A stretch of DNA of 64,000 bases. Source: an uncultured Gammaproteobacteria bacterium. Lineage in GTDB: Bacteria; Patescibacteriota; Patescibacteriia; Magasanikbacterales; GWA2-37-8. This document shows, piece after piece, positions 24,043 through 45,735 of this stretch. The first letter of the stretch is position 1; the number at the start of each line of letters is the position of its first letter. The DNA lies in assembly GCA_964535515.1 (NCBI GenBank), contig CAZHTA010000005.1:13-64012 (forward strand). Direction: 5' to 3'. The notes under the pieces are model-generated. The model was not told where the DNA came from. It searched no databases and saw nothing but the letters and a program-made list of their open reading frames with translations. The position numbers and the translations under genes are program-made.

Positions 24043-24073
24043 TAATTTTTAAATAAATAATTATTAAAACAAA

Positions 24074-28917: not shown

Positions 28918-28935
28918 CAATTTAGTAAACAAAAA

Positions 28936-29132: not shown

Positions 29133-29483
29133 CTAGACGATCAGCGTGGTGCCGACGGAGCGGGGGTCGCGGATTTTCCGCACCCTACCTTCCTTGCTGG
29201 TGGCGACGAAGGTGTACGGGCTGGTCCAGGTCCAGACGACCTGGAAGAGGCTCCCTGTCGGCGCCTGTTGGGCGAAGCACATGATGCCGCTGTCCTTACC
29301 GTCGGTCCTGGGGACCAACAGGTCGCCGTCGCGAACGAGCCGGATGTAGGTCTTGAGCTGCGGTCCCGACTCCGGCGAGCTGGGCTTCCGGCTCGTGCGG
29401 AAGAAGGTCACGTCGGGCGGCAGCTTGAACAGGGCGCCCTTTTGGAACGGGAACGACGAGGTCGGGGTCGGTTGGTCGGACAT
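29133..29483 (-). CDS. hypothetical protein in GC-rich foreign-like cassette 4
   Basis: 116 aa, high GC3, GGAGGA RBS 5 nt upstream of ATG, minus-strand TTGACA-17-TAATAT promoter at about 29548-29576. Confidence 0.5.
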   Translation of the reverse strand: MSDQPTPTSSFPFQKGALFKLPPDVTFFRTSRKPSSPESGPQLKTYIRLVRDGDLLVPRTDGKDSGIMCFAQQAPTGSLFQVVWTWTSPYTFVATSKEGRVRKIRDPRSVGTTLIV

Positions 29484-29524
29484 GGTAATCCTCCAGAGAT
29501 GCTTGCTCTCACACCAACTGCGGT

Positions 29525-29806
29525 ATGAGTGTTGGTGAGGATATTAATGCTTTTTTTACAATTTGTCAATATTTCCCATTGCGGTTAATGTATTTTTTTG
29601 ATAAAATATTAATGCTTATGAAGACAAAAATAAATCAGAAGCAACAAGAAGAACTACAAAAACTAGAGAAGTGGTTTGATTTGGAGTTAATAAAATTAAA
29701 GAAAAAGCGAATCGAGATTTTAAAGCGTTATGATAAAAAAAGGTCATTGTTGTTTCAGAATAAAATATTAAAACATATTAGTGGTATAAAGACAGAAACA
29801 TATTAA
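29525..29806 (+). CDS. small Lys/Glu-rich coiled-coil protein (true start probably internal Met near 29614)
   Basis: ORF track 93 aa; first third overlaps minus-strand promoter of cassette 4, so a downstream start is more plausible. Confidence 0.4.
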   Translation: MSVGEDINAFFTICQYFPLRLMYFFDKILMLMKTKINQKQQEELQKLEKWFDLELIKLKKKRIEILKRYDKKRSLLFQNKILKHISGIKTETY

Positions 29807-29808
29807 AT

Positions 29809-32800
29809 ATGCCAGATGAAGTAGAGGACAACCAAGAGTTGGCGGTTGAACAGGATGGTGCACCTATAGAAATATTTGAGGGTCCATTCACTAATGAGAC
29901 TGAAGTTGATTTTGAAAATTTAAGAGCTGGGGCTGAGGTTGCTGAAGAAACTGCTAGGCAAGCAGAAGATTTTGTTATACAAAATCAAGACAAACCAGAG
30001 TTTGTCGAAGAAGTGCAAGCGATGGTTGAAGTAAAGACTGAGGCCAAAGAAATCAAATCTGGGTTTTTGCGTGGGTTAGATAAGATTTTTGGTGGCGTAA
30101 AGGAGAAGCTTAAGGGAGGTTTAGAAAAATCAGTTAAGGTTGATGATGAAAAAGTTATTGCTAGTTTGCACGCGAAATTAAATAAACTTCAGGTTGCTTT
30201 GCTTACAAAGAAGACTGATTTTTTGAAAAAAGTTGCTAAAAAATTAGGGACGAAATATTATTCAATACCAAAAAAAGAAGAAGAAAAAGCAATGACGGAA
30301 TTTTCTTATGGCAAAGAAAGTGGGGATGAATTTTTGGAATTACTTGATTTACATAAAAAAGCAGAAAAAAGTGACTATAAAAAATGGGAAAAAGCGGAAG
30401 AAGTTCTTTTGAGGGTTGCCAGGGACTTGATTTACAGCGCTTTAAGAAAGGGAAATCTAGAAGCAGCGTTAAGATTGTATGACCGATTGCCTGATTTGTT
30501 GGGTCTTAGTGAGATTTCAGAGAGGATAGTAATGTTTGTAGATGATCAATTCAAAGAAGAATATGATAAAAATGAAGGATATTTTGATTCAGAGAAAGCT
30601 CGTTTTGAGAACAAAAGAAAAGCGCGGATAAATTTCTTTAAAGATAAATTAAAATTTCGTCCAGATTTACGATTTTCAACATTTTTTATTAATGATCCGT
30701 ATTATCGAGGAGGTGGATTGGAATGCGTTGATGATGCTCAGCTGGGTGTTTTTAAAGATATTATTATCAAAGGCAATCGTGATTGTATATTAGCAAAATT
30801 TTCACCAACTGAAAAAATGACCGAAGAGGAGGTTGACAGGTTGTTCGAAGCGTATAGGAGGTTTGATAAAAACAAAATATTAAATAATATTGATCGTTTA
30901 AAAAGCAGAGTTGAAAAGTTGACTGATGCGGAGAGAGATGATGTAATTTTGCCTTTAATCGAAAATGGTGCGTGTTTGAACAATCCGGGTTTTGAACAGT
31001 ATTTACGTTTTTTCCCACTGACTAAAGCACAGACACGAGAGTTTGTTCACAAATTTTGGGATTATTATGAACCGTCAGATAATAAAACTAAAGATGAAGA
31101 CAAAAGAAAATGTATTGAACATTTGTCAATTAATTTTCCACAGATCTTTTTATTTGATTCAAATTTGGAAAAGATGAGTAATGTTTTTGAGTGGCCGTTA
31201 ACGGCAATAGATCAAAAGAAAGTGATTAGATATTGTTCTGGCGGTTTAGATGAAAGAGGAAATCTTAATGGGGATATTGATAATTTAAAGATGGTTATTG
31301 ATCGTAACAAAGAAGACTGTTCAGGATTGGGGGATATAGAAAGAGAAAATGCGTTATTAACTTATGTAAATTTACACCGAAGTTTTGGTTCGATTGATTA
31401 TGAACGTTTGTTTGGCGCTCTAGATAAAGCATCAGATGATGTTAGGGGAAAAATAATTCTAGAACTTAAAACTAAAAGGGCTTTAGAGGTTGTAGTTTTA
31501 GGTTTTGAATTTTTAAAACCCGAAGAACAAAAAAGCTTTTTAAGTTCTGATATGTTGGATGCACGCAAGCTTTTGGGCGTGTTTTATAATGGTGATAGTA
31601 GTGTTGATGGTGTTATGTATATAATTAATGGTTTGCATTTGTCAAATACAGAAAAGAAAAATATATATAGCCATTTGTTTGGTGATCTTACGAGTATTGA
31701 TCAAATAAAGTTGCTTAATACTTTTTATAAATATACAAATTCTAAAAAAGAATTAGAAGATTATTTGTCAGCCAATATTTCTGGGGTGTTAGGAAATTTA
31801 GATTTACTCGGTTATTTATCAAGTATTGGTAATGGGATTTATCCGGATATTGATTCGTTAAGTGCTGAAGATAGAGATTTTTTGACGTTAGCGCAAAATT
31901 TTCGAGCTTCGAAAAATCAACGTGATCTTTGGACGAGAATTGATCATGATGGTATAAACAGAGTTGAATGTAATGAAGGAGAGGTTGTGGCCACAAAAAA
32001 GGCAGATAGATTTGAAAGTAGAGTTTTAGCAAAAATTTTAGATGAAATGGGGTTGTCCACAGTCGAAAGAGATAAGCTTATAAATACGTTGATCTCTAGC
32101 CCTATCAGTGTTAGTGAGAGGTGTTGTGGTAAGCTCTCGGAATATTCGTCGGCTGAATTTTTTGATATCACTTTATTATCACAAGATAAGGGTGGAATTT
32201 TAACAAATGAACAATTTAATAAAATGGTGGATGGATTGTTGGTAAGCAGGCCAGATACTGTTTATGAAATATATATTGAAATTGGTGCTACTGCAGAAGA
32301 GAAAAAGCGATTGGCATTGGCGTTAGTAGAACATAATCCAAAATATTTATTGTCTCTTCATTTAAAAGGCGGAGATGTTTTGGAATTGATTTCTTTTTTA
32401 CCTCATCAAAAACGTTTAGACGCGATTAAAGAAATGGAAGTCGAAGAGCTTGTGAGTATTTTAGGTCAAGGACAGGGAGTAGTTTTTGGCCAGTTTGATC
32501 AAAGCGAGAGAGGCGCGGTTGTAGACAAACTATCGAAAGACAAACCGGAATTTATTTATGTTCTATACGAGAGTGTAGGTGTAATTTCTTCGGAAGAAAA
32601 AAAACAATTAGCGGAATCTTTTTTAAAGGTTAATCCTGTATATTTATTTCAAAAATATGTTGAGGGTAGTGATGGGATGGGTATAATTTATGGTTTGGAA
32701 AATTTGGATGAGATAATAGATAAGGTTGCGGAGTTTGACCCAGCTTTGGTGTTTATACATCGCAAGTTTTTGAATCTTGATGAAAAAAGACGTTTAGAGT

Positions 32801-34938
32801 TAATGAGACAAATGAGTCCTGATAAGCTAGTTTGGGTTTGTGTCGCAGAGGATGGTACAGAAAAAGATCCGCTTGAACAATATGAGCGAGACGAAATATT
32901 GCTTAAGTTATTAGATGGGTACCCAGAATTCGTTTATAATATGTATGTGCAGATTGGTAAAATAACACCAGAGCAGAGTCGGGGGTTAGCTGCTTCATTT
33001 TTATTACACAAACCCGAGTATCTTCTCCGGCTTTTTGTGTCAGGTCAAGATACGCTTGATGTATTTAATAATTCTTTTAATAGGAACGAATTAGTAGATA
33101 AGTTTATTGCGGTTTATCCAAGTTTAGTTTTTGAACATAGGGGTAAATTAAATCTTAGTGCGGAAAAGCGTATTGCGTTAATTGCATATATGCATCCTAG
33201 AGATATTGCCAATGTTATTCTTAATGTTAACGATGAAGGAAATAAATTTGCTAGTTTTGAGCAATATGAAAAAGATGCTATTTTAAGTAGATTTTTTAAT
33301 CAGGCTGCTGGGGAGTTCGTTAATTGTCGTAAAGAGTTTGGTTTGGGTGACTTAGATGGTATTCTTAAGATTAGGGATTTAAATATTTTTGGTGCTTATG
33401 AAGAGAAGATAAGTGCTGAAGTTCGTGAAAACATGGTGATCAGAACACAACAATTGTTATGTGCGGCGACTTTTTCAGATAGTATCGGGGATAAAAACTA
33501 TGAGTATTTTGATCAATTTGAAGTTGATGAAAATGAAAGTAAGAATTCAGTATTTTTTCGTGAATTTGTTGAGAAATATCCAATTGGTAACAAGGGGAAA
33601 ACCATTCTTGTTTTGTGTGCGGCTAAAGCATTTGAGGCTGGCGCTACTGCCGGTGAGGTGGTCGCCAACATTAGGCATGAGGTGGAATCTTATGAAAAGG
33701 TTATTGATAGATATGCGAGCTTAGATATTCCGACTGGTTTGCGTGCGTCTATGGGGACAGAATATGAAATTACGAAACCTAATAGTGAGGGCCACCGAGA
33801 AAGATTTGGAATGGACCTGAAGTCTAATATCATGAGTCTTAGTATGTTAGCGGAGGTGGGTCAGGGTCGTGATGCAGTACATGAAATTGCTACAAAACCG
33901 ACTGACAATCCGGCTTTGCTTTTGGCGGAAATGCATTTATTGCAAGAATTAGGATTTATTGATTTAAACTTTAATGAATATACTAAAGGGAGCCGCGGTT
34001 ATCATTTAACTATTGGTGGCGCACACGGTTTGCGAAACAGCAGGGATACTCGTTTTCTGTTAAATACATTAGTTATGTCTGGTTGGGCAGGTATAAACGC
34101 TGGTAAAGTAATTGGCGCTGTAAGCAGTGGTAGAAACATCCCGATTAGAGACCGTGGTTTTGGTGGAGTTCAAGTATTTAAGGGTGATACGCAATCAACC
34201 GAACTACGTAGTGTGTCTATTGATGCTTGGGAACCGTTTGAAAGAACGATTTTGACTAGTTATTTCTCTAGTATTGCTATTCAGACAATGAATAAATATT
34301 GTCCGGTTGAAGATTTGAAGGACTTTCTTGATGATCCAAGATTGTTGTCTGATTGGAGTGATAATTTTATTAGTAATCGTTCGTTGTCGGGAAGTGATTT
34401 GGAGGAGAGTAGCAAAATAGTAGAGATTGTTGGTGCATGGGTAAAATTGATGAGTGATGCAAAAGCAGCGGTAGATTACCATAATGAAAATTTTCCAACC
34501 GAAGCTTATAATGAAGAAGTTTATCGACAGATGGATGAGGCGACCATGGGAGAGAACTTTGAAAAAAAATTAGATATTGATCCAGCAGAGTTGTTTAGTG
34601 ATTTAACTCCGGAGTTTATTAATCGTTTGACGATGATTACTAATTTGTTTATTAAGCCATCTTTGAAAAGTGGCGGAGACACCGTAAATGCTGCGGCAAT
34701 ATTGTCAACTACTAAGATTGGTAAAAAGAATGGTGAAGAGTACGTGGAAGAAAGCCGGAGAACCCAATATAGTTCAATGTTTGATAGAGGTGAAAGTCGA
34801 CAGGGGTATTATTATGTTCAAAATGGCAGTCAGGAAATGATTATTCATAAAATTCAACAGTTATTGTTAGAGTTTAATCAGCGAATGCAGAAGGTTTTAT
34901 CGCGTTCGAATGCTGCTGTAATAGCGAAGGCGGCTTAA
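29809..34938 (+). CDS. giant protein (1709 aa) with internal ~100-aa repeats; function unknown
   Basis: Long uninterrupted ORF with backbone-like codon usage; three repeats of module ...PEF(V/I)Y..Y..(I/V)G.I..E....LA.SFL...P.YL... Confidence 0.8.
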   Translation: MPDEVEDNQELAVEQDGAPIEIFEGPFTNETEVDFENLRAGAEVAEETARQAEDFVIQNQDKPEFVEEVQAMVEVKTEAKEIKSGFLRGLDKIFGGVKEKLKGGLEKSVKVDDEKVIASLHAKLNKLQVALLTKKTDFLKKVAKKLGTKYYSIPKKEEEKAMTEFSYGKESGDEFLELLDLHKKAEKSDYKKWEKAEEVLLRVARDLIYSALRKGNLEAALRLYDRLPDLLGLSEISERIVMFVDDQFKEEYDKNEGYFDSEKARFENKRKARINFFKDKLKFRPDLRFSTFFINDPYYRGGGLECVDDAQLGVFKDIIIKGNRDCILAKFSPTEKMTEEEVDRLFEAYRRFDKNKILNNIDRLKSRVEKLTDAERDDVILPLIENGACLNNPGFEQYLRFFPLTKAQTREFVHKFWDYYEPSDNKTKDEDKRKCIEHLSINFPQIFLFDSNLEKMSNVFEWPLTAIDQKKVIRYCSGGLDERGNLNGDIDNLKMVIDRNKEDCSGLGDIERENALLTYVNLHRSFGSIDYERLFGALDKASDDVRGKIILELKTKRALEVVVLGFEFLKPEEQKSFLSSDMLDARKLLGVFYNGDSSVDGVMYIINGLHLSNTEKKNIYSHLFGDLTSIDQIKLLNTFYKYTNSKKELEDYLSANISGVLGNLDLLGYLSSIGNGIYPDIDSLSAEDRDFLTLAQNFRASKNQRDLWTRIDHDGINRVECNEGEVVATKKADRFESRVLAKILDEMGLSTVERDKLINTLISSPISVSERCCGKLSEYSSAEFFDITLLSQDKGGILTNEQFNKMVDGLLVSRPDTVYEIYIEIGATAEEKKRLALALVEHNPKYLLSLHLKGGDVLELISFLPHQKRLDAIKEMEVEELVSILGQGQGVVFGQFDQSERGAVVDKLSKDKPEFIYVLYESVGVISSEEKKQLAESFLKVNPVYLFQKYVEGSDGMGIIYGLENLDEIIDKVAEFDPALVFIHRKFLNLDEKRRLELMRQMSPDKLVWVCVAEDGTEKDPLEQYERDEILLKLLDGYPEFVYNMYVQIGKITPEQSRGLAASFLLHKPEYLLRLFVSGQDTLDVFNNSFNRNELVDKFIAVYPSLVFEHRGKLNLSAEKRIALIAYMHPRDIANVILNVNDEGNKFASFEQYEKDAILSRFFNQAAGEFVNCRKEFGLGDLDGILKIRDLNIFGAYEEKISAEVRENMVIRTQQLLCAATFSDSIGDKNYEYFDQFEVDENESKNSVFFREFVEKYPIGNKGKTILVLCAAKAFEAGATAGEVVANIRHEVESYEKVIDRYASLDIPTGLRASMGTEYEITKPNSEGHRERFGMDLKSNIMSLSMLAEVGQGRDAVHEIATKPTDNPALLLAEMHLLQELGFIDLNFNEYTKGSRGYHLTIGGAHGLRNSRDTRFLLNTLVMSGWAGINAGKVIGAVSSGRNIPIRDRGFGGVQVFKGDTQSTELRSVSIDAWEPFERTILTSYFSSIAIQTMNKYCPVEDLKDFLDDPRLLSDWSDNFISNRSLSGSDLEESSKIVEIVGAWVKLMSDAKAAVDYHNENFPTEAYNEEVYRQMDEATMGENFEKKLDIDPAELFSDLTPEFINRLTMITNLFIKPSLKSGGDTVNAAAILSTTKIGKKNGEEYVEESRRTQYSSMFDRGESRQGYYYVQNGSQEMIIHKIQQLLLEFNQRMQKVLSRSNAAVIAKAA

Positions 34939-34948
34939 TTATTATTGT

Positions 34949-35353
34949 ATGAGCAGAAGAGAGTTTCCATCATATTTAAGGTTAGTACAACCAGATGAAG
35001 TACCTAGTACTAATCCTGATAGTTTGCCAGTTTCTAATTTTAGTTCGGTAGATATTTTAAATTTGCCCGATGATACAGTAAATGACATGTATAAAAGATA
35101 TTCTACTTTTCCGGTTGCATTTGATTTTTTAAATCGATTAAGTGATTGGGAATTAAAAAGAGGTTTGTCTAAAACAGATAAGGGGATATTGTTTGTTATG
35201 GCTATGACCGCACAGTCACTTAATAATACGGGTTTATTTAGTGCTTTGAGAGCTTTTATAGTTAAAGGTGAACCGCTTATAGAAAATAATCTAGTTGAAT
35301 TTGGTGGTAAAATTAAGGACTATTTATTAAATTTAAAAATTGAAAAAGAGTAA
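34949..35353 (+). CDS. hypothetical protein
   Basis: 134 aa ORF immediately after giant gene. Confidence 0.45.
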   Translation: MSRREFPSYLRLVQPDEVPSTNPDSLPVSNFSSVDILNLPDDTVNDMYKRYSTFPVAFDFLNRLSDWELKRGLSKTDKGILFVMAMTAQSLNNTGLFSALRAFIVKGEPLIENNLVEFGGKIKDYLLNLKIEKE

Positions 35354-35380
35354 TTATTTTAATATTTTATTATAAACCTT

Positions 35381-37318
35381 ATGGACGAAAATCAAATCCA
35401 ATCAAATACTTTGGTTAGTGAACCGGTTGTGGCAGAAGCTCCTCCCGTAGTTGTGATGCAGGATGTGCCGGTGGTTAAGAAAAAGAATGTTTTAAATTCT
35501 GCTCTTTTTCCGCTTTTAGCGTTTCTTTTGATTGGTTTGGTATATATGGCAGTTTATGCTTTTATAAAGCCCGTAGCTAAAGATATTGTTAACGAGACAA
35601 TCGCTAAAATATTTAAAAATTACGGGATGTATTTTGGTTGGGTTTTTGCTTTGTTGTCTTTGGTGATAATGTATGTTTTGTATTTAATTAAAAAAATAGT
35701 TAGATTAGGTAAATTTCAAATAACTAATCCGATTATTTTAATTGCATCACTTTTGCCTTGGTATTTTTTTGCTAAACAGTTGCTTTTTCATGAAAAACGT
35801 TATACGGATATTGCCCGAGGGATAATCACTTATGTTGGCTTGCCATTACTGTGGGTGGTATATATTGTGGCGGGCATAGCTTTAGTTTGGTTTGTTGTTC
35901 TGGCGATTGTGAAATTACTCAAAAGAAAAGATTTGGCAAATAAAGCGGCTTTAGTGTTGTTTGTTGTTTTTGCCCCGTTTGTTTTAACAGGTTGTGTTGG
36001 TGATCTTCAAGCAATGTTGTGTGATTTTTTACCTGATAGCGATCATTGTTTTCAAGGAGCAGCTGTCCAAGAAGGGGACGCAGATGGTTGTGAAAAAGTT
36101 TCGGGAGAGAAATTTAAGGATGTTGGCTCTAATCCACCACGTGACAAGTGTTATTTGCAGATTGCAGAAAATACCGGTGATTTGGAAGCTTGTAAAAAAA
36201 TTAAAGGTGGGCCAATGTCATATGATAAAGATGAATGTATTTTAAGCACCTCTTTGGCCTATGAAAATCCAGCGGGTTGTAAATTGTTGTCGGGAGCGAA
36301 TAAAACAAAATGTTTATCGGAGTTTGGCATGCGTACTACCTACGACAAAGTTTTGGAGGTAGACGACCAGATTCAAATTTTAAAAGATAGTTTAAAAAAT
36401 GGTTCAGATGCGGAAATGGAAAAGCAGTTAAAAGGTTTGGAAGAAAAACGAACTGACATGCTTGGGGTGATGACAAAAATCAATCGTACGGAATATGAAA
36501 AAATGAGTGATCCAACGAATCGAGAAATTATTGGTGATTTTGCTGTTGGTGATATTGATAGTGCTACTAAAGAAAAACTTTTAGCCTTTAATGCTTCGTT
36601 AAAGAAGCAGGGGCTAGCTTTGACCGCAAGTCAGTATGATTCTTTTAAAGAATACTATAAATTTGTGAATGATCCTGATAATGATATTGAGAAGATGAAT
36701 GATTCGGAGATTGTAAAGAATCGTTGGAATGAAAAAGTTGGTAATGTAGTTGATGCAATGAAATTTTGGAAAACTAATGATACCAAAGCTGAGGAAAGTG
36801 CTGATCAGCAATTACGTTTTTATCAACGCATGTTAGAGCGTCAGGCGGCTATTGCCAAAGGGATGAGTGATTTGCAACAGGATGTCGATAGGAATATGGA
36901 TATGGTAATTGAAGCAGGCAAAGACAAAGCCAAGGATATTTTGAAAGACAAGGTGATTGAGGGTTTGTTTGGCGAAATTACTGGTAAAACTGTTGGTATT
37001 ACTACAGCGGTATTAGGTGAAGCAATAGACACGGTTAAAGCCGAAGCCAAATCAGCTGAGTTTAGAGGCTTGGTAAATGCCTATAACTCTGGCATGTCTG
37101 AAGAAGTGGGTAAATTTGGCGGTGATGTTGAAAAGGCACATGCGGAAGTTATTAAGAAATTGATGGCTGATCCATATACATATGCAAGTGGCAATTCGTT
37201 TGCTAAGTATGGTAACTTAATAGAAAATAAAGATTGCGATGGTACTAATCCGCATTGTTTAAATAAAGAGGTATTTTGGAAGGCGATGAAAAAGTCGTAT
37301 AAATATCAACATCAATAG
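35381..37318 (+). CDS. multi-pass membrane protein with Cys-rich and coiled-coil extracytoplasmic region
   Basis: 645 aa, about 6 N-terminal hydrophobic helices, Cys-rich segment, Lys/Glu-rich C-terminal half. Confidence 0.55.
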   Translation: MDENQIQSNTLVSEPVVAEAPPVVVMQDVPVVKKKNVLNSALFPLLAFLLIGLVYMAVYAFIKPVAKDIVNETIAKIFKNYGMYFGWVFALLSLVIMYVLYLIKKIVRLGKFQITNPIILIASLLPWYFFAKQLLFHEKRYTDIARGIITYVGLPLLWVVYIVAGIALVWFVVLAIVKLLKRKDLANKAALVLFVVFAPFVLTGCVGDLQAMLCDFLPDSDHCFQGAAVQEGDADGCEKVSGEKFKDVGSNPPRDKCYLQIAENTGDLEACKKIKGGPMSYDKDECILSTSLAYENPAGCKLLSGANKTKCLSEFGMRTTYDKVLEVDDQIQILKDSLKNGSDAEMEKQLKGLEEKRTDMLGVMTKINRTEYEKMSDPTNREIIGDFAVGDIDSATKEKLLAFNASLKKQGLALTASQYDSFKEYYKFVNDPDNDIEKMNDSEIVKNRWNEKVGNVVDAMKFWKTNDTKAEESADQQLRFYQRMLERQAAIAKGMSDLQQDVDRNMDMVIEAGKDKAKDILKDKVIEGLFGEITGKTVGITTAVLGEAIDTVKAEAKSAEFRGLVNAYNSGMSEEVGKFGGDVEKAHAEVIKKLMADPYTYASGNSFAKYGNLIENKDCDGTNPHCLNKEVFWKAMKKSYKYQHQ

Positions 37319-37332
37319 AAAATTGAAATATT

Positions 37333-38034
37333 ATGAATAAAAAATATATAATATTTATTATGGTCATAGCTATTTTAATTGGTGTAGCATTACTTGTGTT
37401 AGTTTTTTCGATGATGGGATCAGATAAAGAAGTTACTAATACACCGGTAACAAAAGTAGAAAATTTTAGCGAACCTATTCCAGAACCTGTTGTGGAGCCT
37501 GTGGTTCCAGTGGTTGTTGCACCTGTTGTTTCGTCAACAAATTTAGTAATTAATGAAAATACAATGCCAGTTGTTAAAATAAAAACAAACAAAGGAGACA
37601 TTACGTTAGAACTTTTTTCTGAAGACGTGCCAAAGACGGTGGAGAATTTTATTACTTTAGCTAAAAAAGGTTTTTATGATGGTGTAATTTTTCATCGGGT
37701 AATCAGTGGTTTTATGATTCAAGGCGGTGATCCAACAGGTACGGGCACGGGTGGTCCAGGGTATCGGTTTGATGATGAATTGAATTCACAAACACCTTCA
37801 TACAAGCGTGGTTATGTGCGTGGTACTTTAGCAATGGCTAACGCCGGTCCAAATACTAATGGTAGCCAGTTTTTTATCATGCACAAAGACTACCCACTAC
37901 CTAATGCCTATACTATTTTTGGGCGGGTGACAAAGGGAATAGAAGTAGTTGATGCGATTGCGGCTGAAGCTGTTGATTCGTCCGATCGTCCGCTAGAAGA
38001 CGTGGTAATGACAAAGGTAGAGGTAAAGCTTTAA
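37333..38034 (+). CDS. ppiB: cyclophilin-type peptidyl-prolyl cis-trans isomerase with N-terminal membrane anchor
   Basis: FHRVISGFMIQGGDP...GPNTNGSQFFI cyclophilin signature; 233 aa. Confidence 0.85.
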   Translation: MNKKYIIFIMVIAILIGVALLVLVFSMMGSDKEVTNTPVTKVENFSEPIPEPVVEPVVPVVVAPVVSSTNLVINENTMPVVKIKTNKGDITLELFSEDVPKTVENFITLAKKGFYDGVIFHRVISGFMIQGGDPTGTGTGGPGYRFDDELNSQTPSYKRGYVRGTLAMANAGPNTNGSQFFIMHKDYPLPNAYTIFGRVTKGIEVVDAIAAEAVDSSDRPLEDVVMTKVEVKL

Positions 38035-38036
38035 AT

Positions 38037-38064
38037 TTGACAGGGTTTTTGTTGGTGGTATAAT
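38037..38064 (+). promoter_or_regulatory. strong sigma70-like promoter TTGACA-16-TATAAT
   Basis: ttgaca(38037-42) gggtttttgttggtgg tataat(38059-64). Confidence 0.6.
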
Positions 38065-38121
38065 GTGAGTATGCTTAATAAAAAGTATCAATTTTTAAAG
38101 GCACACAAAAGAAAGAAATCA

Positions 38122-38149
38122 GAATTTCCCTGTTGGGAAATTTTTTTTA
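38122..38149 (+). terminator. terminator hairpin 1 in leader region
   Basis: aatttccc-tgtt-gggaaatt + T8. Confidence 0.65.
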
Positions 38150-38171
38150 TAACCAACAATATTAATTCACT

Positions 38172-38199
38172 AAATCCTCCGTTTCCCGGAGGATTTTTT
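38172..38199 (+). terminator. terminator hairpin 2 in leader region
   Basis: aaatcctccg-tttccc-ggaggat + T6. Confidence 0.65.
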
Positions 38200-38239
38200 A
38201 AATTTTAAAATTATGACATAAAATATCAATCAATAATTT

Positions 38240-38264
38240 GACGGCTAATGGCCGTCTGTTTTTT
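38240..38264 (+). terminator. terminator hairpin 3 in leader region
   Basis: gacggc-taat-ggccgtc + tgtttttt. Confidence 0.6.
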
Positions 38265-38288
38265 AGAAAATAATTTAATTAAAAAACT

Positions 38289-39293
38289 ATGGATACATCA
38301 GTTATTAAATTAACCGATCGAGTTTTGCAAGGCGCACGAGAATATTTGATTCAGAATGGTTATACGGAAGTCGTAACACCGCGCATTGTTAAGGCATCAG
38401 GTGCTTGTGAGAATATCAACACTTTGTTTGAGGTTTCATCAGATAAGGATGATCGTTGGTTTGATGGTCACAAAAGTTATTTGGCACAAACTGGTCAGTT
38501 GTATCTTGAGGCTTTAGTGCCAAAGTTAGGTTGTGTATATTGTGTTGGTCCTAGTTTTCGTGCGGAGCCGAAGGTAGACAAAAGGCATTTAACGGAGTTT
38601 TTGATGATTGAGATTGAACATCCAGGTGGTTTTGATCGGTTATTAGAATATATCGAAGGCATGCTTTATCATGTAGCGCAAATAGTTGCAAATGACCCAA
38701 AGGCAGTTGACGTCTATGGTATTACAGATGAAACTATTGTCCGATTAGCTTCGTGCACTAAAGTGTTTACTAAACTTACCTATGACCAAGCAATTAATAA
38801 GTTAAAGAGTTTGGGCGAAAAAATTGAATGGGGCGATGATATATCTTCAGCACAAGAGAGTGTCTTAGTATGGGAGAATAAAAATCAGCCGTTGTTTATT
38901 ACCAGATTTCCTGATCCGATGTGGAAGTTCGATAAGGATATTGAAGTGGAAAAATTTTTTAACATGTTGCCCGACCCGGAAAATCCGGGTCGTGTTTTAT
39001 CTGCTGATTTAATCTTGCCTTTTGGTGGGGAAGCAGTAGGTTCAGCAGCACGAGCGCATGAGGCCGATGTTCTGCGGGCAAGATTGGAGAACTCAAGAAT
39101 GTTTAAGCGTTTAGTGGAACGAGGGGGAAGCATTGAAGACTTTGAGTGGTATATTAACCAAGTTGAAACGAACGGTGCTGTACCACACGCAGGTTGTGGT
39201 TTTGGTATGGCCAGAGTAATACAATGGTTAAAAGGGGAGACTGATATTCGTAAGGCTGTGGCGTTTCCTTCTAACAAAGAGATTTTAGTATAG
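38289..39293 (+). CDS. class II aminoacyl-tRNA synthetase catalytic-core homolog lacking anticodon-binding domain (AsnA-like aspartate-ammonia ligase, archaeal AS-AR type)
   Basis: Motif 2-like GPSFRAEP, motif 3-like GCGFGMARVIQWL; 334 aa with no N-terminal OB fold. Confidence 0.55.
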   Translation: MDTSVIKLTDRVLQGAREYLIQNGYTEVVTPRIVKASGACENINTLFEVSSDKDDRWFDGHKSYLAQTGQLYLEALVPKLGCVYCVGPSFRAEPKVDKRHLTEFLMIEIEHPGGFDRLLEYIEGMLYHVAQIVANDPKAVDVYGITDETIVRLASCTKVFTKLTYDQAINKLKSLGEKIEWGDDISSAQESVLVWENKNQPLFITRFPDPMWKFDKDIEVEKFFNMLPDPENPGRVLSADLILPFGGEAVGSAARAHEADVLRARLENSRMFKRLVERGGSIEDFEWYINQVETNGAVPHAGCGFGMARVIQWLKGETDIRKAVAFPSNKEILV

Positions 39294-39342
39294 TATTAGT
39301 TGGCGGTTATTAGTTTGGGTTAAATGTTAGGGTAGTTATAGG

Positions 39343-39375
39343 AAAAAATCCGCTTGTTTTAAAGCGGATTTTTTG
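39343..39375 (+). terminator. Rho-independent terminator
   Basis: aaaaaatccgctt-gtttta-aagcggatttttt. Confidence 0.7.
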
Positions 39376-39404
39376 TTAATATTACTACGTTAATATATTT
39401 TTAT

Positions 39405-41336
39405 ATGCGTTTTAGATTATTATCATTTTTAGGCTTGTTGTTTGTTTTTGGTGGGTTGGTATTTGTTGGGCCAGTTAAGGTGGTTGAAAATCGTAGTTAT
39501 TTTTATGATGGTATAGATGTTGAAGCGGTGGTGAATCAAGATACTACGGTAGATATTAGAGAAAGGCAATCGTACGTTTTTGTAGGCGAATATCATAAGG
39601 GATGGAGAAGTATTCCTTTGCGTAAAATTGATGCGATTACCAATATTCAGGTTTTAGATGGTGTGACCAATCAACCGTTGACGTATTCTTGGCGTACTTT
39701 AGAAAAAACTGATCCAGCAAGTTGGGGTAAATATACCTACCGTCGTAACGGTGGTAATGTGGAGATTGAATGGTATTACAATGCCAAAGACGAACAAAAG
39801 ACCTGGATAATTGAATACAAAGCGCATGGTGCATTAGAGTTTTTAAAAGATAATGATAGGTTCTATTGGAATTTATTTACTGATTATGAAGTACCAGTAG
39901 AAGCGGCGAGTGTTAAAGTATATTTACCAGAAAATGCTAATTTGTCAGTCGCGGGTTGGGAAATATATCCATCAGGGGGCGTGGCGGCAGTTTCTTCATT
40001 TGACAGTAGTCAGGGTTATTTTTATGCTTCTGGCGAAAATTTTCCTCCTCAGGGCATGTTGACAGTGAATCTTTTCTGGCCAAAGGGAGCGGTAAACCGT
40101 TCAGCATATTGGTCAGATTTTTGGAAATTAAAGTATGGTTATATTATCTCAATATTTTTATTAATATTAACTTTTTCAATTGCTATTATCCGCTGGTTAA
40201 TGGTTGAACGTTTAGTTAAAGGGCGAGGTACAATTGTGCCGCAGTATGAACCACCAAAAGGAATGTCTCCGGCGGAAATGCAAGTAGTGTTAAAAGAGAG
40301 TGTGAATAGTCGAGCGCTGGCAGCGACGATTATAGACTTGGCAGTGAGGGGCTATGTAAAAATTGAAGAAGAGCCACCAACTGCTTGGCATAAAATGTTG
40401 GCGAAAGCAACGGTTGGTCTGTTTGCTGCTATTTTTATCTTACTTTTTATTGGTATTTGGTATTTTGGATCAGGAAATTCTATTAGTTTGTTTTTTGTTG
40501 CAGTAGCAGCGCTTATTTGTTTTATCATATTGCAGAAGTTTAAAACCGGACGTTACGGGCGTGATTATCGAATTGTTAAAACTGAAAAGGATAATAGTGG
40601 TTTAAAGGATTATGAGAAGAAATATTTGGATGCACTTTTTTGGTATGGAAGTGAATATTTTTCTACTCGCGAAATGCGTTCGTCTTCTAGTTCTTCTCGA
40701 GCGGCGGCGATGCAAAAAAATATTTTAGAATTGCGAGAAGATATTTACAAATCAGTTGACCCGGATAACAAGTTTTATGAAGTCTCACCGTTAAAAGAAA
40801 AAATCAAATGGGGTGTTTGGATTTTGTCTGGGATTATTATTGTTATTTGTTTGTCTGCGGGAGGAAGTTGGTTTTTTAGTTTAGCACAATATTGGTACAT
40901 TGTTTTTTCTTTAGTAATATTTGGTTCTTGTTTATTTGTATATTTTAAATACGAAGCTCGTTTAAGTCAGGCGGGTAGAGAGCTTAAAGAAGAGATCTTA
41001 GGCTTTAAAATGTATTTGTATTCTGCCGAACGGTATCGTTTGCAAAATCTTACGCCCGATATTTTCGAGAAGTATTTACCATACGCAATGGTGTTTAAGA
41101 TCGAAAAACAGTGGGCAAAGACTTTTGTTTCGAGAGACGTTAGCCAGCCTTCTTGGTATTATACTGGGTATTATGGTTCGGATTCCTCGGTACCGTCAGT
41201 AGCCACATTTTCGGCTACTGCCTTTAGCGCTAGTTTTGTTTCATCTTTTCCCGCCTCCTTTTCAGGTTGGTCGGGGGGGGGGTGGGGGGGGTTTTGGGGG
41301 GGGGGGGGGGGGGGTGGGGGAGGCGGTGCAAGTTAG
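39405..41336 (+). CDS. DUF2207-like membrane protein with Gly-rich C-terminus
   Basis: Signal/TM, extracytoplasmic beta-rich N-domain, several TMs, C-terminal GGGWGGFWGGGGGG tail as seen in DUF2207 family; poly-G DNA tract 41270-41330. Confidence 0.6.
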   Translation: MRFRLLSFLGLLFVFGGLVFVGPVKVVENRSYFYDGIDVEAVVNQDTTVDIRERQSYVFVGEYHKGWRSIPLRKIDAITNIQVLDGVTNQPLTYSWRTLEKTDPASWGKYTYRRNGGNVEIEWYYNAKDEQKTWIIEYKAHGALEFLKDNDRFYWNLFTDYEVPVEAASVKVYLPENANLSVAGWEIYPSGGVAAVSSFDSSQGYFYASGENFPPQGMLTVNLFWPKGAVNRSAYWSDFWKLKYGYIISIFLLILTFSIAIIRWLMVERLVKGRGTIVPQYEPPKGMSPAEMQVVLKESVNSRALAATIIDLAVRGYVKIEEEPPTAWHKMLAKATVGLFAAIFILLFIGIWYFGSGNSISLFFVAVAALICFIILQKFKTGRYGRDYRIVKTEKDNSGLKDYEKKYLDALFWYGSEYFSTREMRSSSSSSRAAAMQKNILELREDIYKSVDPDNKFYEVSPLKEKIKWGVWILSGIIIVICLSAGGSWFFSLAQYWYIVFSLVIFGSCLFVYFKYEARLSQAGRELKEEILGFKMYLYSAERYRLQNLTPDIFEKYLPYAMVFKIEKQWAKTFVSRDVSQPSWYYTGYYGSDSSVPSVATFSATAFSASFVSSFPASFSGWSGGGWGGFWGGGGGGGGGGAS

Positions 41337-41397
41337 AATTGACTAGTAAGCGGTTTTGAGTTAAAATTCTTCTGTTTTATACTTGCTTGTAATTTCT

Positions 41398-41468
41398 GCC
41401 CTCTTTGTTCAGTGGTAGAACAGTGGTATCGTAAACCACAAACATCAGTTCGATTCTGATAGAGGGCT
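41398..41468 (+). tRNA. tRNA-Thr (anticodon CGU)
   Basis: Manual fold: acceptor GCCCUCU/AGAGGGC, D-arm GUUC-AGUGGUA-GAAC, anticodon loop AUCGUAA, T-arm AUCAG-UUCGAUU-CUGAU. Confidence 0.8.
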
Positions 41469-41582
41469 CATTTAAAATTTCGCTTAATAGCGGAGTTTTT
41501 TATTTTCCACAAACCCTTGCTTTTTTTGTTGTTTATGATAGGGTTATTAAAGAAATTTGGGAATATATTTCCCTTAATTTGC

Positions 41583-41602
41583 ATTTGCACGCTCGTGCAA
41601 AT
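41583..41602. promoter_or_regulatory. 9-bp perfect inverted repeat ATTTGCACG-ct-CGTGCAAAT adjacent to TTGAC hexamers upstream of pepT (candidate operator)
   Basis: Palindrome seen directly; overlaps putative promoter ttgaccgatatttgaca. Confidence 0.45.
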
Positions 41603-41689
41603 GTTGACCGATATTTGACAATTCATTACGGAAACGGAAGAGGGAGTTAGTGCTAGTGCTGGAGCGAAAACTGTTTGGGGGAGGAATAG

Positions 41690-42943
41690 ATGTTGATTCC
41701 ACGCGAACGCATGCTCGAAAGGTTCATGCGCTACGTGCGCATGGACACCCAGTCGGTTGAGGGAGCGGAGTGCTACCCCTCGACCGAGAAGCAGAAGACC
41801 TTGCTGCGGCTGTTGGTCGACGAACTGAAGGCGCTGGGCCTCGCCGATGCGGCCATGGACGAGTGGGGCTACGTCTTCGCGACGTTGCCGTCGAACTTGC
41901 CGGCCGACCAGGCCGCCAAGTTGCCGGCCATCGGTTTCTTGGCGCACGTCGACACGTCGCCGGAAACGAGCGGCACGGACGTGAAGCCGGTGATCTGGAG
42001 GCACTACGATGCGGGCACCAACCTCGTGTTGCCCGGCGACCATTCCCAGGTGATCACCTGGGACGGTAACCCCGTGCTGCAGCGATACGTCGGGCAGGAC
42101 ATCATCACCAGCGACGGCACCACCCTGCTGAGCGCGGATGATAAGGCGGGCATCGCCGAAATCATGACCGCCATCGAGGTGCTGTTGGCGAATCCTGACA
42201 TCCCGCGCCCCACCATCCGTGTGGCGTTCACGCCCGACGAAGAGGTCGGTATGGGTACTGCCCATTTCGATCTCGCGAAGTTCGGCGTGCAGGCCGCCTA
42301 TACCCTCGACGGCGGCGAAATCGGTGAGGTTGAATGCGAGACATTCAACGCTTACCTCGCGACCTTCACGGTCGTCGGCAACAACTGCCACCCCGGCTAC
42401 GCCAAGGGGAAGATGGTCAACGCCATTCGTCCCATGGCAGCTATCGTCGAGGCCTTGTCCGACCAGCCTGCACCCGAGACCACCGAGGGTCGCCAGGCTT
42501 ACCTGCACCCGTACGATCTCAAGGGTGAAGTTGCCAAGGCTACGCTCAAGGTGCTCATCCGCAGCTTCGATGAAGCAGGTATCGAGTCGCGCAAGATGTT
42601 CCTCGCGGGCGTGCGCGATCGCGTAGCGGCGGCGTTCCCTCAGGCGAACATCGTTCTCGAGATGGTCGAGCAGTACAAGAACATGAAGGTCTACGTGGAT
42701 CAGGATCCGCGTGTCATGGCCTTCGCCACGGAAGCCATCATCAAGGCTGGTCTCCAGCCGATCACACGCGAGATCCGCGGCGGTACGGATGGCTCGAAGT
42801 TGTCCGAGAAAGGACTGCCTTGCCCCAACCTGTTCGCGGGTGGGCACAACTTCCACTCGAAGTTGGAGTTCATCCCGGTGCAGTCTATGGAGAAGGCCGT
42901 GGAGGTCGTGGTCTACCTGGTCGAGCGCTGGGCCAACGCCTGA
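41690..42943 (+). CDS. pepT: peptidase T (tripeptide aminopeptidase, M20B family) in GC-rich foreign-like cassette 5
   Basis: Strong collinear similarity to E. coli PepT recalled from memory (HVDTSP, GADDKAGIAEIM, AFTPDEEVG, IRGGTDG, GLPCPNLF, GGHNFH); high GC3; GGGGGAGG RBS. Confidence 0.8.
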   Translation: MLIPRERMLERFMRYVRMDTQSVEGAECYPSTEKQKTLLRLLVDELKALGLADAAMDEWGYVFATLPSNLPADQAAKLPAIGFLAHVDTSPETSGTDVKPVIWRHYDAGTNLVLPGDHSQVITWDGNPVLQRYVGQDIITSDGTTLLSADDKAGIAEIMTAIEVLLANPDIPRPTIRVAFTPDEEVGMGTAHFDLAKFGVQAAYTLDGGEIGEVECETFNAYLATFTVVGNNCHPGYAKGKMVNAIRPMAAIVEALSDQPAPETTEGRQAYLHPYDLKGEVAKATLKVLIRSFDEAGIESRKMFLAGVRDRVAAAFPQANIVLEMVEQYKNMKVYVDQDPRVMAFATEAIIKAGLQPITREIRGGTDGSKLSEKGLPCPNLFAGGHNFHSKLEFIPVQSMEKAVEVVVYLVERWANA

Positions 42944-43198
42944 TCATCCCGTCTCAGCCGTTTCTGGCTAAACACTTACCACATTGGAGGGAAATGGTGT
43001 GGCACAGTGCGATTCATTCGCCAAGCTATTCCCCTCTAAATGAAGATTTTGATTTAAGTCTTTATTTAGAGGATAGTTTGGAAATATTAATAAGACCATT
43101 TGTATAAATTACGAGTGGTTTTTTATTTATACACATCCTTTGGTTTGGTAGGTTTTCTACTTCTCCTTTTTTGTGATATAATTTAAATACTATCGCTT

Positions 43199-43879
43199 AT
43201 GATTAAATTACAGGGAGTAACCAAACTTTATACCACTACCTCAATTGCCTTGAGGGATATTAGTATTAATATTGGGGCGGGGGAGTTTGTTTCTATTATC
43301 GGACAAAGTGGTAGTGGTAAAACTACGTTAGCTAAACTTTTGATTGCGGAAGAGCGACCGACTAAAGGGGTCATTCATATTGGTGATTGGGATCTAACAA
43401 AAATCACTTCTAATGAAATTCCTTTTTTACGTCGTCAGATCGGAATGATTTTTCAGGATTACAAACTTTTACCAAAGAAAACTGTTTATGAAAACGTTTC
43501 TTTTGCGTTAGAGGTTTCCGGAGAAGATAGTCATCGTATTAATCAGGTGGTTCCGCAGCTGCTCGAGATTGTTGGTTTGTCAAAAAAACATGACCGTTAT
43601 CCTTTTCAGTTATCTGGTGGTGAACAACAGCGTGTGGCGATCGCTCGTTCGCTAGCGCATCGTCCAAAGATTATCGTAGCGGATGAACCAACTGGTAATT
43701 TGGATACAATTAACACTGAAGAGATAATTCAAATTTTGAAAAAAATTAACGAGTTTGGTACTACGGTTATGTTGTTAACACATAATCGCGAAGTGGTTAA
43801 CAGTCTGCGTCGGAGAGTAATTACTTTACATGGTGGTGAGATTATTATGGATCAAAGTGAGGGTAAATATGTGCTTTAA
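43199..43879 (+). CDS. ftsE: cell-division ABC ATPase FtsE
   Basis: Walker [10 protein letters not shown], signature [15 protein letters not shown], 226 aa, followed by ftsX. Confidence 0.8.
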
Positions 43880-43882: not shown

Positions 43883-44791
43883 ATGATATCATTTTGGCGA
43901 GTGTTAAAATTTGCGTTTCAAGATTTAGGCCGTAATTTAGGCATGTCTTTCATGACAGTTTTTATTTTAGTCTTGATGTTGTTGTCTTTTAATACTCTCT
44001 GGTCAGTGGAAATCTTAACTAAACAGGCGGTTAGCACAGTTAAGGATCAAATTAATGTTAGTATATATTTTTCGGCTGATGCTAAAGATAAAGAGGTGGA
44101 GGATACCAAAAGTTATCTTTCTGGTTTCCCTGAAGTAGTTCAGGTTGATTTGCGTAGTCGTGAAGAAGTGTTGCAGCTTTTTAAAGATCGCCATAGTTTA
44201 AGTAAGGAAGTTTTGCAGGCATTAGAAGAGTTGGGTGGTAATCCTTTTGGTCCAACTGTAATTGTAAAAACAAAAGAACCGGGGGATTACAAAAAGATTG
44301 TAGAGGCACTGAACGCTCCAGAGTACAAAGATTTGATTGAAGCCAAAAGTTTTGATGAGCATGCAGATGCGATTGATAAGATTCAGAATATTACTAACCG
44401 AATCGAAGGGGCGGGGATGGGTTTAACTATTTTGTTTGCTCTAATTTCATTTTTAGTTATCTTTAACACTGTGAGGGTGGCAATTAACAGCCAGCGGTTT
44501 GAGATTGGAATCAAGCGGTTAGTGGGGGCAAGTAATTGGTTTATTCGTGGCCCGTATTTGATCGTTTCAGTAGTCTTAACTTTGGTTAGTGTGGGTATTA
44601 CGGCAATTATCCTTAAATTTGCTTTAAAATGGGTGGATCACTATTTATCCGTGGTCTTTTCTGGTGGATTCTCCTTGACAAATTATTACAATTCGCATAT
44701 TCTGTACGTGTTTGGCGTGCAGATTATAGTGGTCCTGGTTTTGACAGTGGCTTCTAGTATCCTAGCAATGCGCCGACAGTTGAAGATATAA
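43883..44791 (+). CDS. ftsX: cell-division permease FtsX
   Basis: N-terminal TM, periplasmic domain, C-terminal 3 TM FtsX domain; 302 aa. Confidence 0.75.
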   Translation: MISFWRVLKFAFQDLGRNLGMSFMTVFILVLMLLSFNTLWSVEILTKQAVSTVKDQINVSIYFSADAKDKEVEDTKSYLSGFPEVVQVDLRSREEVLQLFKDRHSLSKEVLQALEELGGNPFGPTVIVKTKEPGDYKKIVEALNAPEYKDLIEAKSFDEHADAIDKIQNITNRIEGAGMGLTILFALISFLVIFNTVRVAINSQRFEIGIKRLVGASNWFIRGPYLIVSVVLTLVSVGITAIILKFALKWVDHYLSVVFSGGFSLTNYYNSHILYVFGVQIIVVLVLTVASSILAMRRQLKI

Positions 44792-44881: not shown

Positions 44882-44883
44882 CT

Positions 44884-45144
44884 ATGTGGTTACTTTTCTT
44901 CGTAGGTATAGTAGAAATGGTGATTATTACCGCCTGGACTAAGGTGGTTTCTGATACCAAGGTTATAGCGAGTGGAGTTATAACTGTGATTAATATCATT
45001 ATTTGGTATTATGTTTTGCGTATATTCGTAGAGAATATTGAAAATATTTACTTTTTAGTTGTTTATATTGCTGGTTGTGCTTTAGGCACCATGGTTACCA
45101 CTTATTATTACAAACAGCAAGAAAAAAAGAATGTTATAAAATAA
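44884..45144 (+). CDS. small hydrophobic membrane protein
   Basis: 86 aa, two to three predicted TM segments; starts 3 nt after tRNA-Gln so expression uncertain. Confidence 0.35.
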   Translation: MWLLFFVGIVEMVIITAWTKVVSDTKVIASGVITVINIIIWYYVLRIFVENIENIYFLVVYIAGCALGTMVTTYYYKQQEKKNVIK

Positions 45145-45331
45145 TAGCTTAACCAAGCTGTTATTTTTTTATACCTGAATGGGATATTGTGATTATTACA
45201 GTCTCTGTTTAAACAAAAAATCACTTTATAATAAGTGGTTTGATGTTTGTTTAAATGAATCTGTGTGGAACCGGCGCGCCTATCCACACAGAGGCGGAAG
45301 AAGTGCGCCGGGTCCTAGGCCTTGTACGTCG

Positions 45332-45586
45332 TCACGCGGTCTTCTGCTCGGGGTAGTACCCCGTGTCGAACATCGCGTCGATGATGTCCGCCGGCACCAC
45401 GTCCTCCATGCGGATGAACGGTCCCGGCGGTGGGAGGTAGATTCCTCGCTTCCTCTCGAATCCAACAGCCAGGAGGAGGCTGCGGAATTCGTCGCATGCG
45501 GGCACGGGCACCGCCATGTCGTTGACATCGACTGCGATTGCGCCGATAGGATCGTTCGGTTCGAAGAGGTTCGTGGCGTCGTCCAT
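45332..45586 (-). CDS. hypothetical small acidic protein in GC-rich foreign-like cassette 6
   Basis: 84 aa from MDDATNLFEP; high GC3; TGGAGG RBS 6 nt upstream; hairpin ctgtgtgga...ccacacag just after stop. Confidence 0.45.
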   Translation of the reverse strand: MDDATNLFEPNDPIGAIAVDVNDMAVPVPACDEFRSLLLAVGFERKRGIYLPPPGPFIRMEDVVPADIIDAMFDTGYYPEQKTA

Positions 45587-45735
45587 GACACCCTCCAAAA
45601 AAGTTACTAATAGTAGACTGTCATATTTTATCAACAAAGTCAATATTTAGTCTAATAATTTTATTGTTTTCCATGGTGTGGAATGGTGTAAGTAAGGTTG
45701 CTTTAAACCTTGTTTTTTGTTAAAATATTAATACT

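Follow-up and report, generated by a model that had tools for sequence, protein, structure and literature searches.

A GC-rich tripeptidase gene, probably acquired horizontally, in a self-contained cassette beside a tRNA gene of an AT-rich Magasanikbacteria genome

The closest described counterparts of the gene treated here are the tripeptide aminopeptidase (pepT) genes of Salmonella enterica and Escherichia coli (MEROPS M20B; structures 1FNO and 1VIX), and its setting recalls tRNA-adjacent genomic islets (blocks of deviant composition directly 3' of a tRNA gene and absent from close relatives) and integron gene cassettes (one open reading frame (ORF) with a conserved long hairpin, imperfectly paired, on its 3' side). 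It also resembles cases of horizontal gene transfer (HGT) into Patescibacteria, or the candidate phyla radiation (CPR), in which unrelated bacteria supply a streamlined genome with a metabolic function, and for which ancient transfers escape detection as composition converges (mSystems 2025, PMC12455944). The pepT gene lies in a 64,000-nucleotide stretch (the window) of contig CAZHTA010000005.1 (assembly GCA_964535515.1), whose DnaG homologues with organism names belong mostly to Candidatus Magasanikbacteria (Patescibacteria). Comparison of the locus with its relatives suggests that the gene was very probably acquired horizontally, ultimately from an uncultured lineage of 68–72% GC, and that it sits in the Magasanikbacteria chromosome within a self-contained unit of 1,655 bp.

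The preliminary description, made from the nucleotide letters of the window, had read the 417-residue product as PepT, and profile searches bear this out: the protein matches the NCBIfam PepT model NF003976 (516.4 bits against a cutoff of 255; residues 6–415 on profile positions 3–406 of 409) and TIGR01882 (416.6 bits, cutoff 285.75), as well as the Pfam families PF01546 (Peptidase_M20, 53.9 bits) and PF07687 (M20_dimer, 37.2 bits, residues 218–317), both above cut-off. It thus shares the two-domain architecture of the enterobacterial enzymes, a dimerisation domain inserted in an M20 catalytic domain, and can be aligned over its full length with the PepT structures 1FNO, 1VIX and 3IFE (residues 6–414 on residues 2–404 of the S. 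enterica/E. coli chain, E = 9e-112), although the sequences are well diverged. The motifs HVDTSP, ADDKAG, PDEEVG, DGG and GHNFH (GxNxH in the enterobacterial comparison) are all kept; by residue, alignment with 1FNO retains H-x-D (in HVDTSP), D (ADDKAG), E-E (PDEEVG), D (LDGG) and H (GHNFH), which we take to be the di-zinc ligands and the catalytic Glu and Asp of that structure. Against all homologues, codon positions 1 and 2 are far better conserved (0.71–0.88) than position 3 (0.54–0.62), which indicates purifying selection, and the product is apparently a functional tripeptidase. Unlike the enterobacterial genes, the window gene is a foreign cassette in a Patescibacteria genome.

Composition sets the gene apart from its surroundings, as the preliminary description had noticed. 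The window as a whole is 38.5% GC, with sharply bounded islands of 55–66% GC; pepT has a GC content of 0.62 and a third-position GC content (GC3) of 0.835, against 0.30–0.42 and 0.24–0.38, respectively, for 30 backbone genes, and its codon-adaptation index on backbone usage is 0.374, compared with 0.684 ± 0.042 for the backbone (z = −7.4), marking it as compositionally foreign. The Shine–Dalgarno site GGGGGAGG, also proposed previously, is present at 41677–41684, 5 nt ahead of the ATG. Such a motif is missing from the 18 nt before the start codon in 49 of 50 backbone genes, whereas GGAGG or GGAG precedes the start codon in five of seven GC-rich cassette genes (pepT counted), which suggests that foreign 5' untranslated regions (UTRs) came in with the genes. 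Relative to published HGT into Patescibacteria (PMC12455944), the contrast is extreme (GC3 0.84 versus 0.30), and the cassette differs further in retaining a Shine–Dalgarno site in a genome otherwise without them. The 462-residue ORF antisense to pepT is, as first supposed, an artefact of composition, a by-product of GC-ending codons: it has no Pfam match, and the codon-aligned antisense frame is stop-free over the whole of pepT in five of the six homologues from GC-rich contexts.

The insertion site could be mapped to the base. The backbone genes of the window include dnaG, an rpoD-like gene, murG, pilB/T-like genes, ftsEX, a DUF2207 gene and a gene for the CCA-adding enzyme, and an FtsX scan yielded 80 related metagenome loci for locus comparison (the window ftsE and ftsX products match Pfam ABC_tran, FtsX and FtsX_ECD above cut-off, and the NCBIfam FtsE and FtsX models at 264.5 and 138–145 bits, both under the curated cut-offs). 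In about 35 relatives the tRNA-Thr(CGT) gene lies 50–175 bp upstream of ftsE; in the window the distance is 1,729 bp. The closest relatives, two collinear contigs with ~76–82% nucleotide identity to the window backbone (L083 and L085), have 65–73 bp between the tRNA gene and the ftsE promoter, and blastn of these and of L087 against the window skips from 41474 to 43125. At the junction the relatives read GGGCTCATTTA followed without interruption by TACACA, that is, GGGCTCA-TTTA-TACACA, and the window reads GGGCTCA-TTTA-(1,651 bp)-TTTA-TACACA, with TTTA at 41471–41474 repeated at 43126–43129 and bounding the block. Because the alignment places the break exactly, the inserted block, with one TTTA copy, is 1,655 bp long. 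Every relative examined lacks the gene at this position, at odds with its earlier characterization as a housekeeping peptidase. A few more distant relatives carry unrelated AT-rich genes at the same junction, which suggests a permissive site and adds to the likeness with tRNA-adjacent islets; the pepT block differs from these in holding a single gene, in lacking both an integrase and a duplication of the tRNA 3' end (the sole repeat is TTTA) and in combining a GC-rich transcript with regulatory flanks that are AT-rich like the recipient.

A second copy of the unit was found elsewhere. P0006, a protein 72% identical to the window PepT, is encoded on a groundwater contig (L165) in the order MFS transporter gene (GC3 0.86), AT-rich spacer, pepT (GC3 0.90), AT-rich spacer and P-type ATPase gene, the last with a GC3 of 0.30 and no Shine–Dalgarno site. 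Both pepT flanks are homologous to those in the window: the ~55-nt 5' UTR gives a local alignment score of 16 (8.8 ± 1.3 in 500 shuffles, none reaching 16) and the ~180-nt 3' flank a score of 55 (9.9 ± 1.5 in shuffles; blastn E = 1.8e-10). Folding gives three hairpins in the 3' flank of each copy: a small one, a long one of ~60 nt and that of a terminator, the last at the same place in a different sequence. The long stem shows compensatory changes and a conserved G·U pair between the copies, and is therefore probably an RNA-level element. From 5' UTR to terminator the unit is ~25% diverged in L165 and occupies a different locus; the cassette has therefore had a past within AT-rich genomes. One ORF followed by a conserved imperfect hairpin, found at different loci in two genomes, is reminiscent of integron cassettes; the differences are that the window has no integrase or attI, that the pepT cassette has its own leader and terminator, that its hairpin ends in CCAAGC...GTTTGG without the attC cores RYYYAAC/GTTRRRY, and that the conserved G·U pair points to RNA rather than DNA structure. 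Pfam scans of the window ORFs revealed no tyrosine recombinase, and an integron or IS200/IS605-like element was rejected, there being no recombinase or TnpA, hairpin cores unlike attC, and end hairpins that resemble ordinary terminators. As a separate observation, the MFS gene upstream of pepT (L165 1–1342) has its best match among the fetched loci in a Holophaga MFS gene lying 6–8 kb from the Holophaga pepT, a hint that transporter and peptidase may have been transferred together.

The source of the gene lies in GC-rich bacteria. The ten nearest proteins (P0001–P0010), of 64–78% identity, come from metagenomes only; the best GTDB species representatives, at most 58% identical, belong to Neomarinimicrobiota, Acidobacteriota and unclassified bacteria. 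Closest homologues in low-GC Patescibacteria had been thought unlikely, and seven of the eight contigs fetched for close homologues are indeed of 68–72% GC, with a pepT GC3 of 0.93–0.98, the exception being the AT-rich mosaic L165. These seven contigs share, whole or in part, the neighbourhood M23 peptidase, HIT, pepT, HSP20, ribF, plsC and epimerase, with pepT adjacent to HSP20 and/or ribF in each, and the neighbouring proteins had no matches in 80 GTDB loci and gained no organism names from cluster look-ups. The direction of transfer is clear: pepT is native to the GC-rich lineage and an insertion in the Magasanikbacteria genome. A phage origin was rejected, relatives of pepT and of c2, c3 and c4 being absent from IMG/VR.

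The preliminary description had offered recent HGT or a chimeric join as explanations. Transfer as the origin is upheld by the clean insertion relative to relatives, the homologues in a GC-rich lineage and the contrast in codon usage. An assembly chimera, in which a GC-rich fragment of another organism was stitched into the contig, would fit the abrupt change in GC from 0.36 to 0.66, the metagenomic source of the contig and an odd poly-G run 150 bp upstream, but it is very unlikely, to the point of being nearly negligible, because the unit occurs in two AT-rich genomes at different loci. Furthermore, the junctions with the backbone (41474/41475 and 43129/43130) lie in AT-rich DNA, and the GC transitions fall within the insert, 150 bp and 130 bp from its ends; the insertion falls cleanly in a conserved tRNA-Thr/ftsE junction and comprises exactly one complete gene with its leader and two terminators; the groundwater copy, GC-rich with homologous AT-rich flanks, comes from an independent assembly; two more assemblies, likewise independent, carry another GC-rich cassette of the window (c1) at the corresponding locus; and the poly-G run is in frame, in the Gly-rich tail of the DUF2207 protein. 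The transfer was probably not very recent, contrary to what had been proposed: the nearest donor-side protein is only 78% identical, a diverged copy exists in another AT-rich genome, and on the window branch GC has already given way to AT at ~15% of the third positions that the other sequences conserve. At sites where the donor-side genes and L165 agree, third positions on that branch show 33 GC-to-AT, no AT-to-GC and 32 C-to-G or G-to-C changes (18 GC-to-AT and 21 C/G changes on the L165 branch), a GC-to-AT excess which indicates that amelioration is under way. How many transfers occurred is a harder question. The AT-rich flanks common to window and L165 tentatively favour, in this comparison of two sequences, one entry into the AT-rich gene pool and later spread of the cassette. 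Under the alternative, the two genomes each took pepT from related GC-rich donors, with the flanks co-transferred or captured in parallel. Several results weigh against the favoured history. C/G changes make up 79 of the 172 third-position differences (~46%) between window and L165, a pattern seen between GC-rich donor genes, which fits divergence in a GC-rich background, and hence two transfers, and sits badly with a single entry and neutral decay. At four-fold sites, L165 differs from the donor-side gene L164 by 0.28, within the 0.22–0.35 seen among donor-side genes, and the window differs from L164 by 0.47 and from L165 by 0.43. The two genes are not sisters in a neighbour-joining tree, shared derived residues join them only weakly (5 versus 2 and 2), and their insertion loci differ. 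In addition, the Pfam scan of window ORFs found no integrase or transposase and there are no long direct repeats (only the 4-bp TTTA is repeated), and the true donor appears to be unsampled, given a best match of 78% and only 58% among GTDB representatives. Two independent transfers nonetheless seem unlikely, if by a wide way short of negligible: the homologous flanks include a hairpin of 33% GC and AT-rich terminator regions, nothing similar stands beside pepT in the sampled donor loci of 68–72% GC, and the derived residues, few as they are, slightly favour joining window and L165.

Two further proposals concern how the cassettes are kept and controlled. GC-richness might be actively maintained, through repeated gene conversion by DNA from a GC-rich host with the same gene or through selection on the transcript, an idea that draws mainly on cassette c1. 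This cassette is syntenic (FdtA, HD_4, c1, RmlD) in three independent assemblies (window 2895–3900, L168 1–875 and L170 1593–2735). L170 has kept the promoter, the GC-rich 5' UTR and GGAGG, and L168, a locus starting within the 5' UTR, has a GAGG motif. The GC3 of c1 is 0.70–0.79 across the three genomes (neighbours 0.30) and its four-fold GC 0.74–0.80 (neighbouring or backbone genes ~0.31–0.43), while the genomes differ at ~0.57–0.59 of four-fold sites in c1 and at 0.49–0.71 in neighbours and backbone; C/G differences per GC site are 0.20–0.30 in c1 against 0.04–0.125 in the backbone, and c1 evolves fast, with an amino-acid identity of 49–58% against 71–83% for RmlD. The GC-rich stretch of several cassettes, moreover, runs roughly from just past the promoter to the terminator, and Shine–Dalgarno sites persist. 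These comparisons for c1 rest on 55–68 four-fold sites, however; a rough two-rate estimate of amelioration predicts a four-fold GC of ~0.6 or less, and with heavy but incomplete saturation of the backbone the excess retention is modest rather than dramatic. pepT itself shows clear net decay from GC to AT, and the c1 family, which forms only two clusters among 5.8 billion proteins, has no member in a GC-rich organism there, which argues against a host reservoir for this cassette. Active maintenance is accordingly improbable, and slightly more doubtful still is the broader notion that the pepT block belongs to a class of transcript-sized, GC-rich, Shine–Dalgarno-bearing Magasanikbacteria cassettes that outlast neutral amelioration, perhaps by conversion from GC-rich host DNA; if it were true, the physical host would be the 68–72% GC lineage with pepT–HSP20–ribF, and the host identity of uncultured CPR bacteria could be read from such cassettes. 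The other proposal, from the preliminary description, was a 9-bp inverted repeat upstream of pepT, overlapping TTGAC hexamers in a classic repressor-operator arrangement. The perfect palindrome is real, 87 nt upstream of the start codon, with arms of 10 rather than 9 bp; it abuts TTGACC and ends 11 nt before TTGACA, overlapping neither. That it is an operator overlapping the pepT promoter is possible and on balance doubtful. A stable hairpin loop would need a base pair of the 2-bp-centred palindrome to be opened; the motif is unique in the window even at three mismatches (0.05 matches expected by chance) and stands directly against the two −35-like hexamers; and L165 has CGTTTGC-N7-GCAAACG at a roughly equivalent place, with the same TTTGC/GCAAA core and the outer position changed on both arms from A/T to G/C. 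Nevertheless, a consensus scan of 41470–41690 found no σ70-like promoter on the + strand and no acceptable −10, Pfam scans showed no obvious DNA-binding regulator in the cassette or among the window-encoded proteins, and neither the rest of the window nor any of 170 fetched loci, which include ~0.75 Mb of related Magasanikbacteria-type DNA, holds a second site. The core spacing also differs between the two copies (8 versus 7 nt), which is more easily reconciled with a hairpin than with a dimer site of fixed geometry, the comparison is of two sequences whose palindrome stretch is not significantly alignable by itself, and the motif could equally serve the cassette as a boundary or recombination element, or be an activator site centred ~41 bp before a transcript start near 41634, at the onset of the GC-rich stretch. 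Its reading as an intrinsic terminator was rejected, no T-run following it; of the ~11 perfect palindromes with arms of at least 10 bp in the window (0.8 expected), most are terminators.

Enterobacterial pepT is induced anaerobically through a hybrid FNR/CRP site of the type TTGAT-N4-ATCAA. The window palindrome (TTTGCAC-N4-GTGCAAA) departs from that consensus, its half-sites mismatching, and an FNR/CRP site was rejected. Another perfect palindrome, of 20 bp (TCCCAGGTGATCACCTGGGA, 42044–42063), lies within the pepT coding sequence, over residues SQVITWD; the QVITWDGN stretch there was among the peptide patterns used in scanning the collections.

With horizontal acquisition as the preferred explanation, the history of the cassette may be outlined as follows. 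The gene would have originated in the uncultured 68–72% GC bacteria with the conserved M23–HIT–...–pepT–HSP20–ribF neighbourhood and entered an AT-rich (CPR-type) gene pool some time ago, as suggested by the ~25% diverged unit at another locus of a second AT-rich genome; later it would have been moved or inherited as a cassette, slowly losing GC. In its present form the unit comprises, on the 5' side, a hairpin/terminator, an AT-rich leader with the 22-bp palindrome and a foreign-style 5' UTR with a strong Shine–Dalgarno site and, on the 3' side, the GC-rich ORF, the conserved hairpin and a terminator, placed directly 3' of tRNA-Thr(CGT) and before the ftsEX promoter. The palindrome would most plausibly be a putative site for a dimeric regulator acting on a weak promoter of the cassette itself. 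Judging from its family, the enzyme would free N-terminal amino acids from imported tripeptides, a useful capacity for an amino-acid-auxotrophic episymbiont. Taken alone, pepT is a well-documented instance of horizontal transfer providing a CPR bacterium with a peptide-scavenging enzyme, and the base-level insertion site and identified donor clade aid metabolic reconstruction of Magasanikbacteria. The wider pattern, that of Shine–Dalgarno-bearing, GC-rich single-gene cassettes under AT-rich promoters in a Shine–Dalgarno-poor genome, is the more interesting one: if general, it bears on the domestication of foreign genes in ultra-small symbionts, on the true speed of amelioration and on donor composition as a pointer to the hosts of uncultured CPR bacteria, and the recurring cassettes of this lineage merit systematic survey.

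Table 1. Coordinates of the pepT cassette, its immediate surroundings and the other GC-rich cassettes of the window
Feature	Position	Strand	Description and basis
tRNA-Thr(CGT)	41398..41469	+	ARAGORN; Rfam tRNA 62 bits; insertion directly 3'
Inserted block (pepT cassette)	41475..43129	+	1,655 bp; absent from closest relatives (blastn, alignment)
Terminator-like hairpin, then T-run	41474..41499	+	Left end of block; terminator scan
Perfect palindrome CATTTGCACG-ct-CGTGCAAATG	41582..41603		10-bp arms, 2-bp centre; candidate protein-binding site or cassette-edge element
Two −35-like hexamers, TTGACC and TTGACA	41604–41609, 41615–41620	+	No matching −10; sequence and promoter scan
5' UTR	41632..41689	+	~50% GC; homologous to L165 cassette; holds Shine–Dalgarno GGGGGAGG
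pepT coding sequence	41690..42943	+	417 residues, M20B tripeptide aminopeptidase; NCBIfam, Pfam, structure alignment
Antisense 462-residue ORF	41468..42856	−	Composition artefact, not a gene; no Pfam hit, frame open in homologues too
Long 3' hairpin	43021..43081	+	Conserved with L165; fold z = −7.0 (window), −7.2 (L165)
Intrinsic-terminator-like hairpin and T-run	43092..43122	+	Right end of block; terminator scan, folding
ftsE and ftsX	43199–43879, 43883–44791	+	Backbone genes normally directly after tRNA-Thr; hidden Markov model matches and synteny L083–L162
GC-rich islands	2826–3900, 18976–19675, 23426–24050, 24126–24450, 28876–29625, 45176–45675		Composition
Cassette ORFs, first three	2961–~3620, 19157–19582, 23602–23970	+, −, −	GC-rich single genes
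Cassette ORFs, last three	24203–24340, 29133–29483, 45332–45589	−, −, −	GC-rich single genes

Besides pepT, the window contains at least six further GC-rich single-gene cassettes (Table 1), each island flanked by AT-rich promoter-like and terminator-like sequence. Five of them have codon indices of 0.31–0.36 against 0.68 for the backbone (24203–24340 was not scored), and several have a tRNA gene (Gly-CCC, Lys-TTT or Gln-TTG) no more than a few hundred bases away. The six encode rare, unannotated proteins, family annotation yielding nothing apart from a weak zinc-finger match for 23602–23970. An explanation of the GC-rich islands by structured RNA genes was rejected, since only seven tRNAs passed the Rfam gathering threshold, and a permissive Rfam scan of 41300–43300 gave sub-threshold noise only; a common mobile backbone was likewise rejected, an all-against-all blastn of the cassette regions returning only matches of 11–20 bp. 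L083, L084 and L085 also lack a block of 811 bp (44883–45693) directly after tRNA-Gln, again a clean insertion in the window, with an AT-rich ORF for an 86-residue membrane protein (44884–45144) and the GC-rich minus-strand ORF at 45332–45589.

In cassette c1, the reading frame is stop-free through its own terminator and the next promoter, overlapping the rmlD-like start (window 3620–3896; L170 2400–2735), and the C-terminal pattern RRG...IRHxxWY...GGTFI.TRRDNVV.PTHD is conserved between window and L170, with L168 stopping earlier. Small GC-rich ORFs (GC3 0.66–0.87) also occur in related AT-rich Magasanikbacteria-type contigs, for example at L137 258–566 (−), L094 2894–3061, L087 6428–6628 and L114 1383–1652 (−); island density in the related contigs, ~14 in 0.75 Mb, is below that in the window.

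Upstream of the tRNA-Thr gene, the poly-G run is an almost all-G stretch of ~50 bases (41267–41320) at the 3' end of the DUF2207 gene (39405–41336). It encodes ...GWSGGGWGGFWGGGGGGGGGGAS followed by the stop codon, using GGG and GGT codons despite the AT-rich genome, and its reading as a sequencing artefact marking a misjoin was rejected, the run being in frame and forming a Gly-rich C-terminus. A tRNA-Gly(CCC) gene is encoded at 28847–28918. From there to tRNA-Thr, ~12.5 kb (28922–41397) are missing in the closest relative, L083, where the two tRNA genes lie ~100 bp apart and the sole match to the region is 44 bp at 39339–39382. The region contains a GC-rich cassette, proteins of 1,709 and 645 residues without Pfam domains, a cyclophilin, the DUF2207 gene and, at 38289–39293, an AsnRS-like protein consisting of the catalytic core only.

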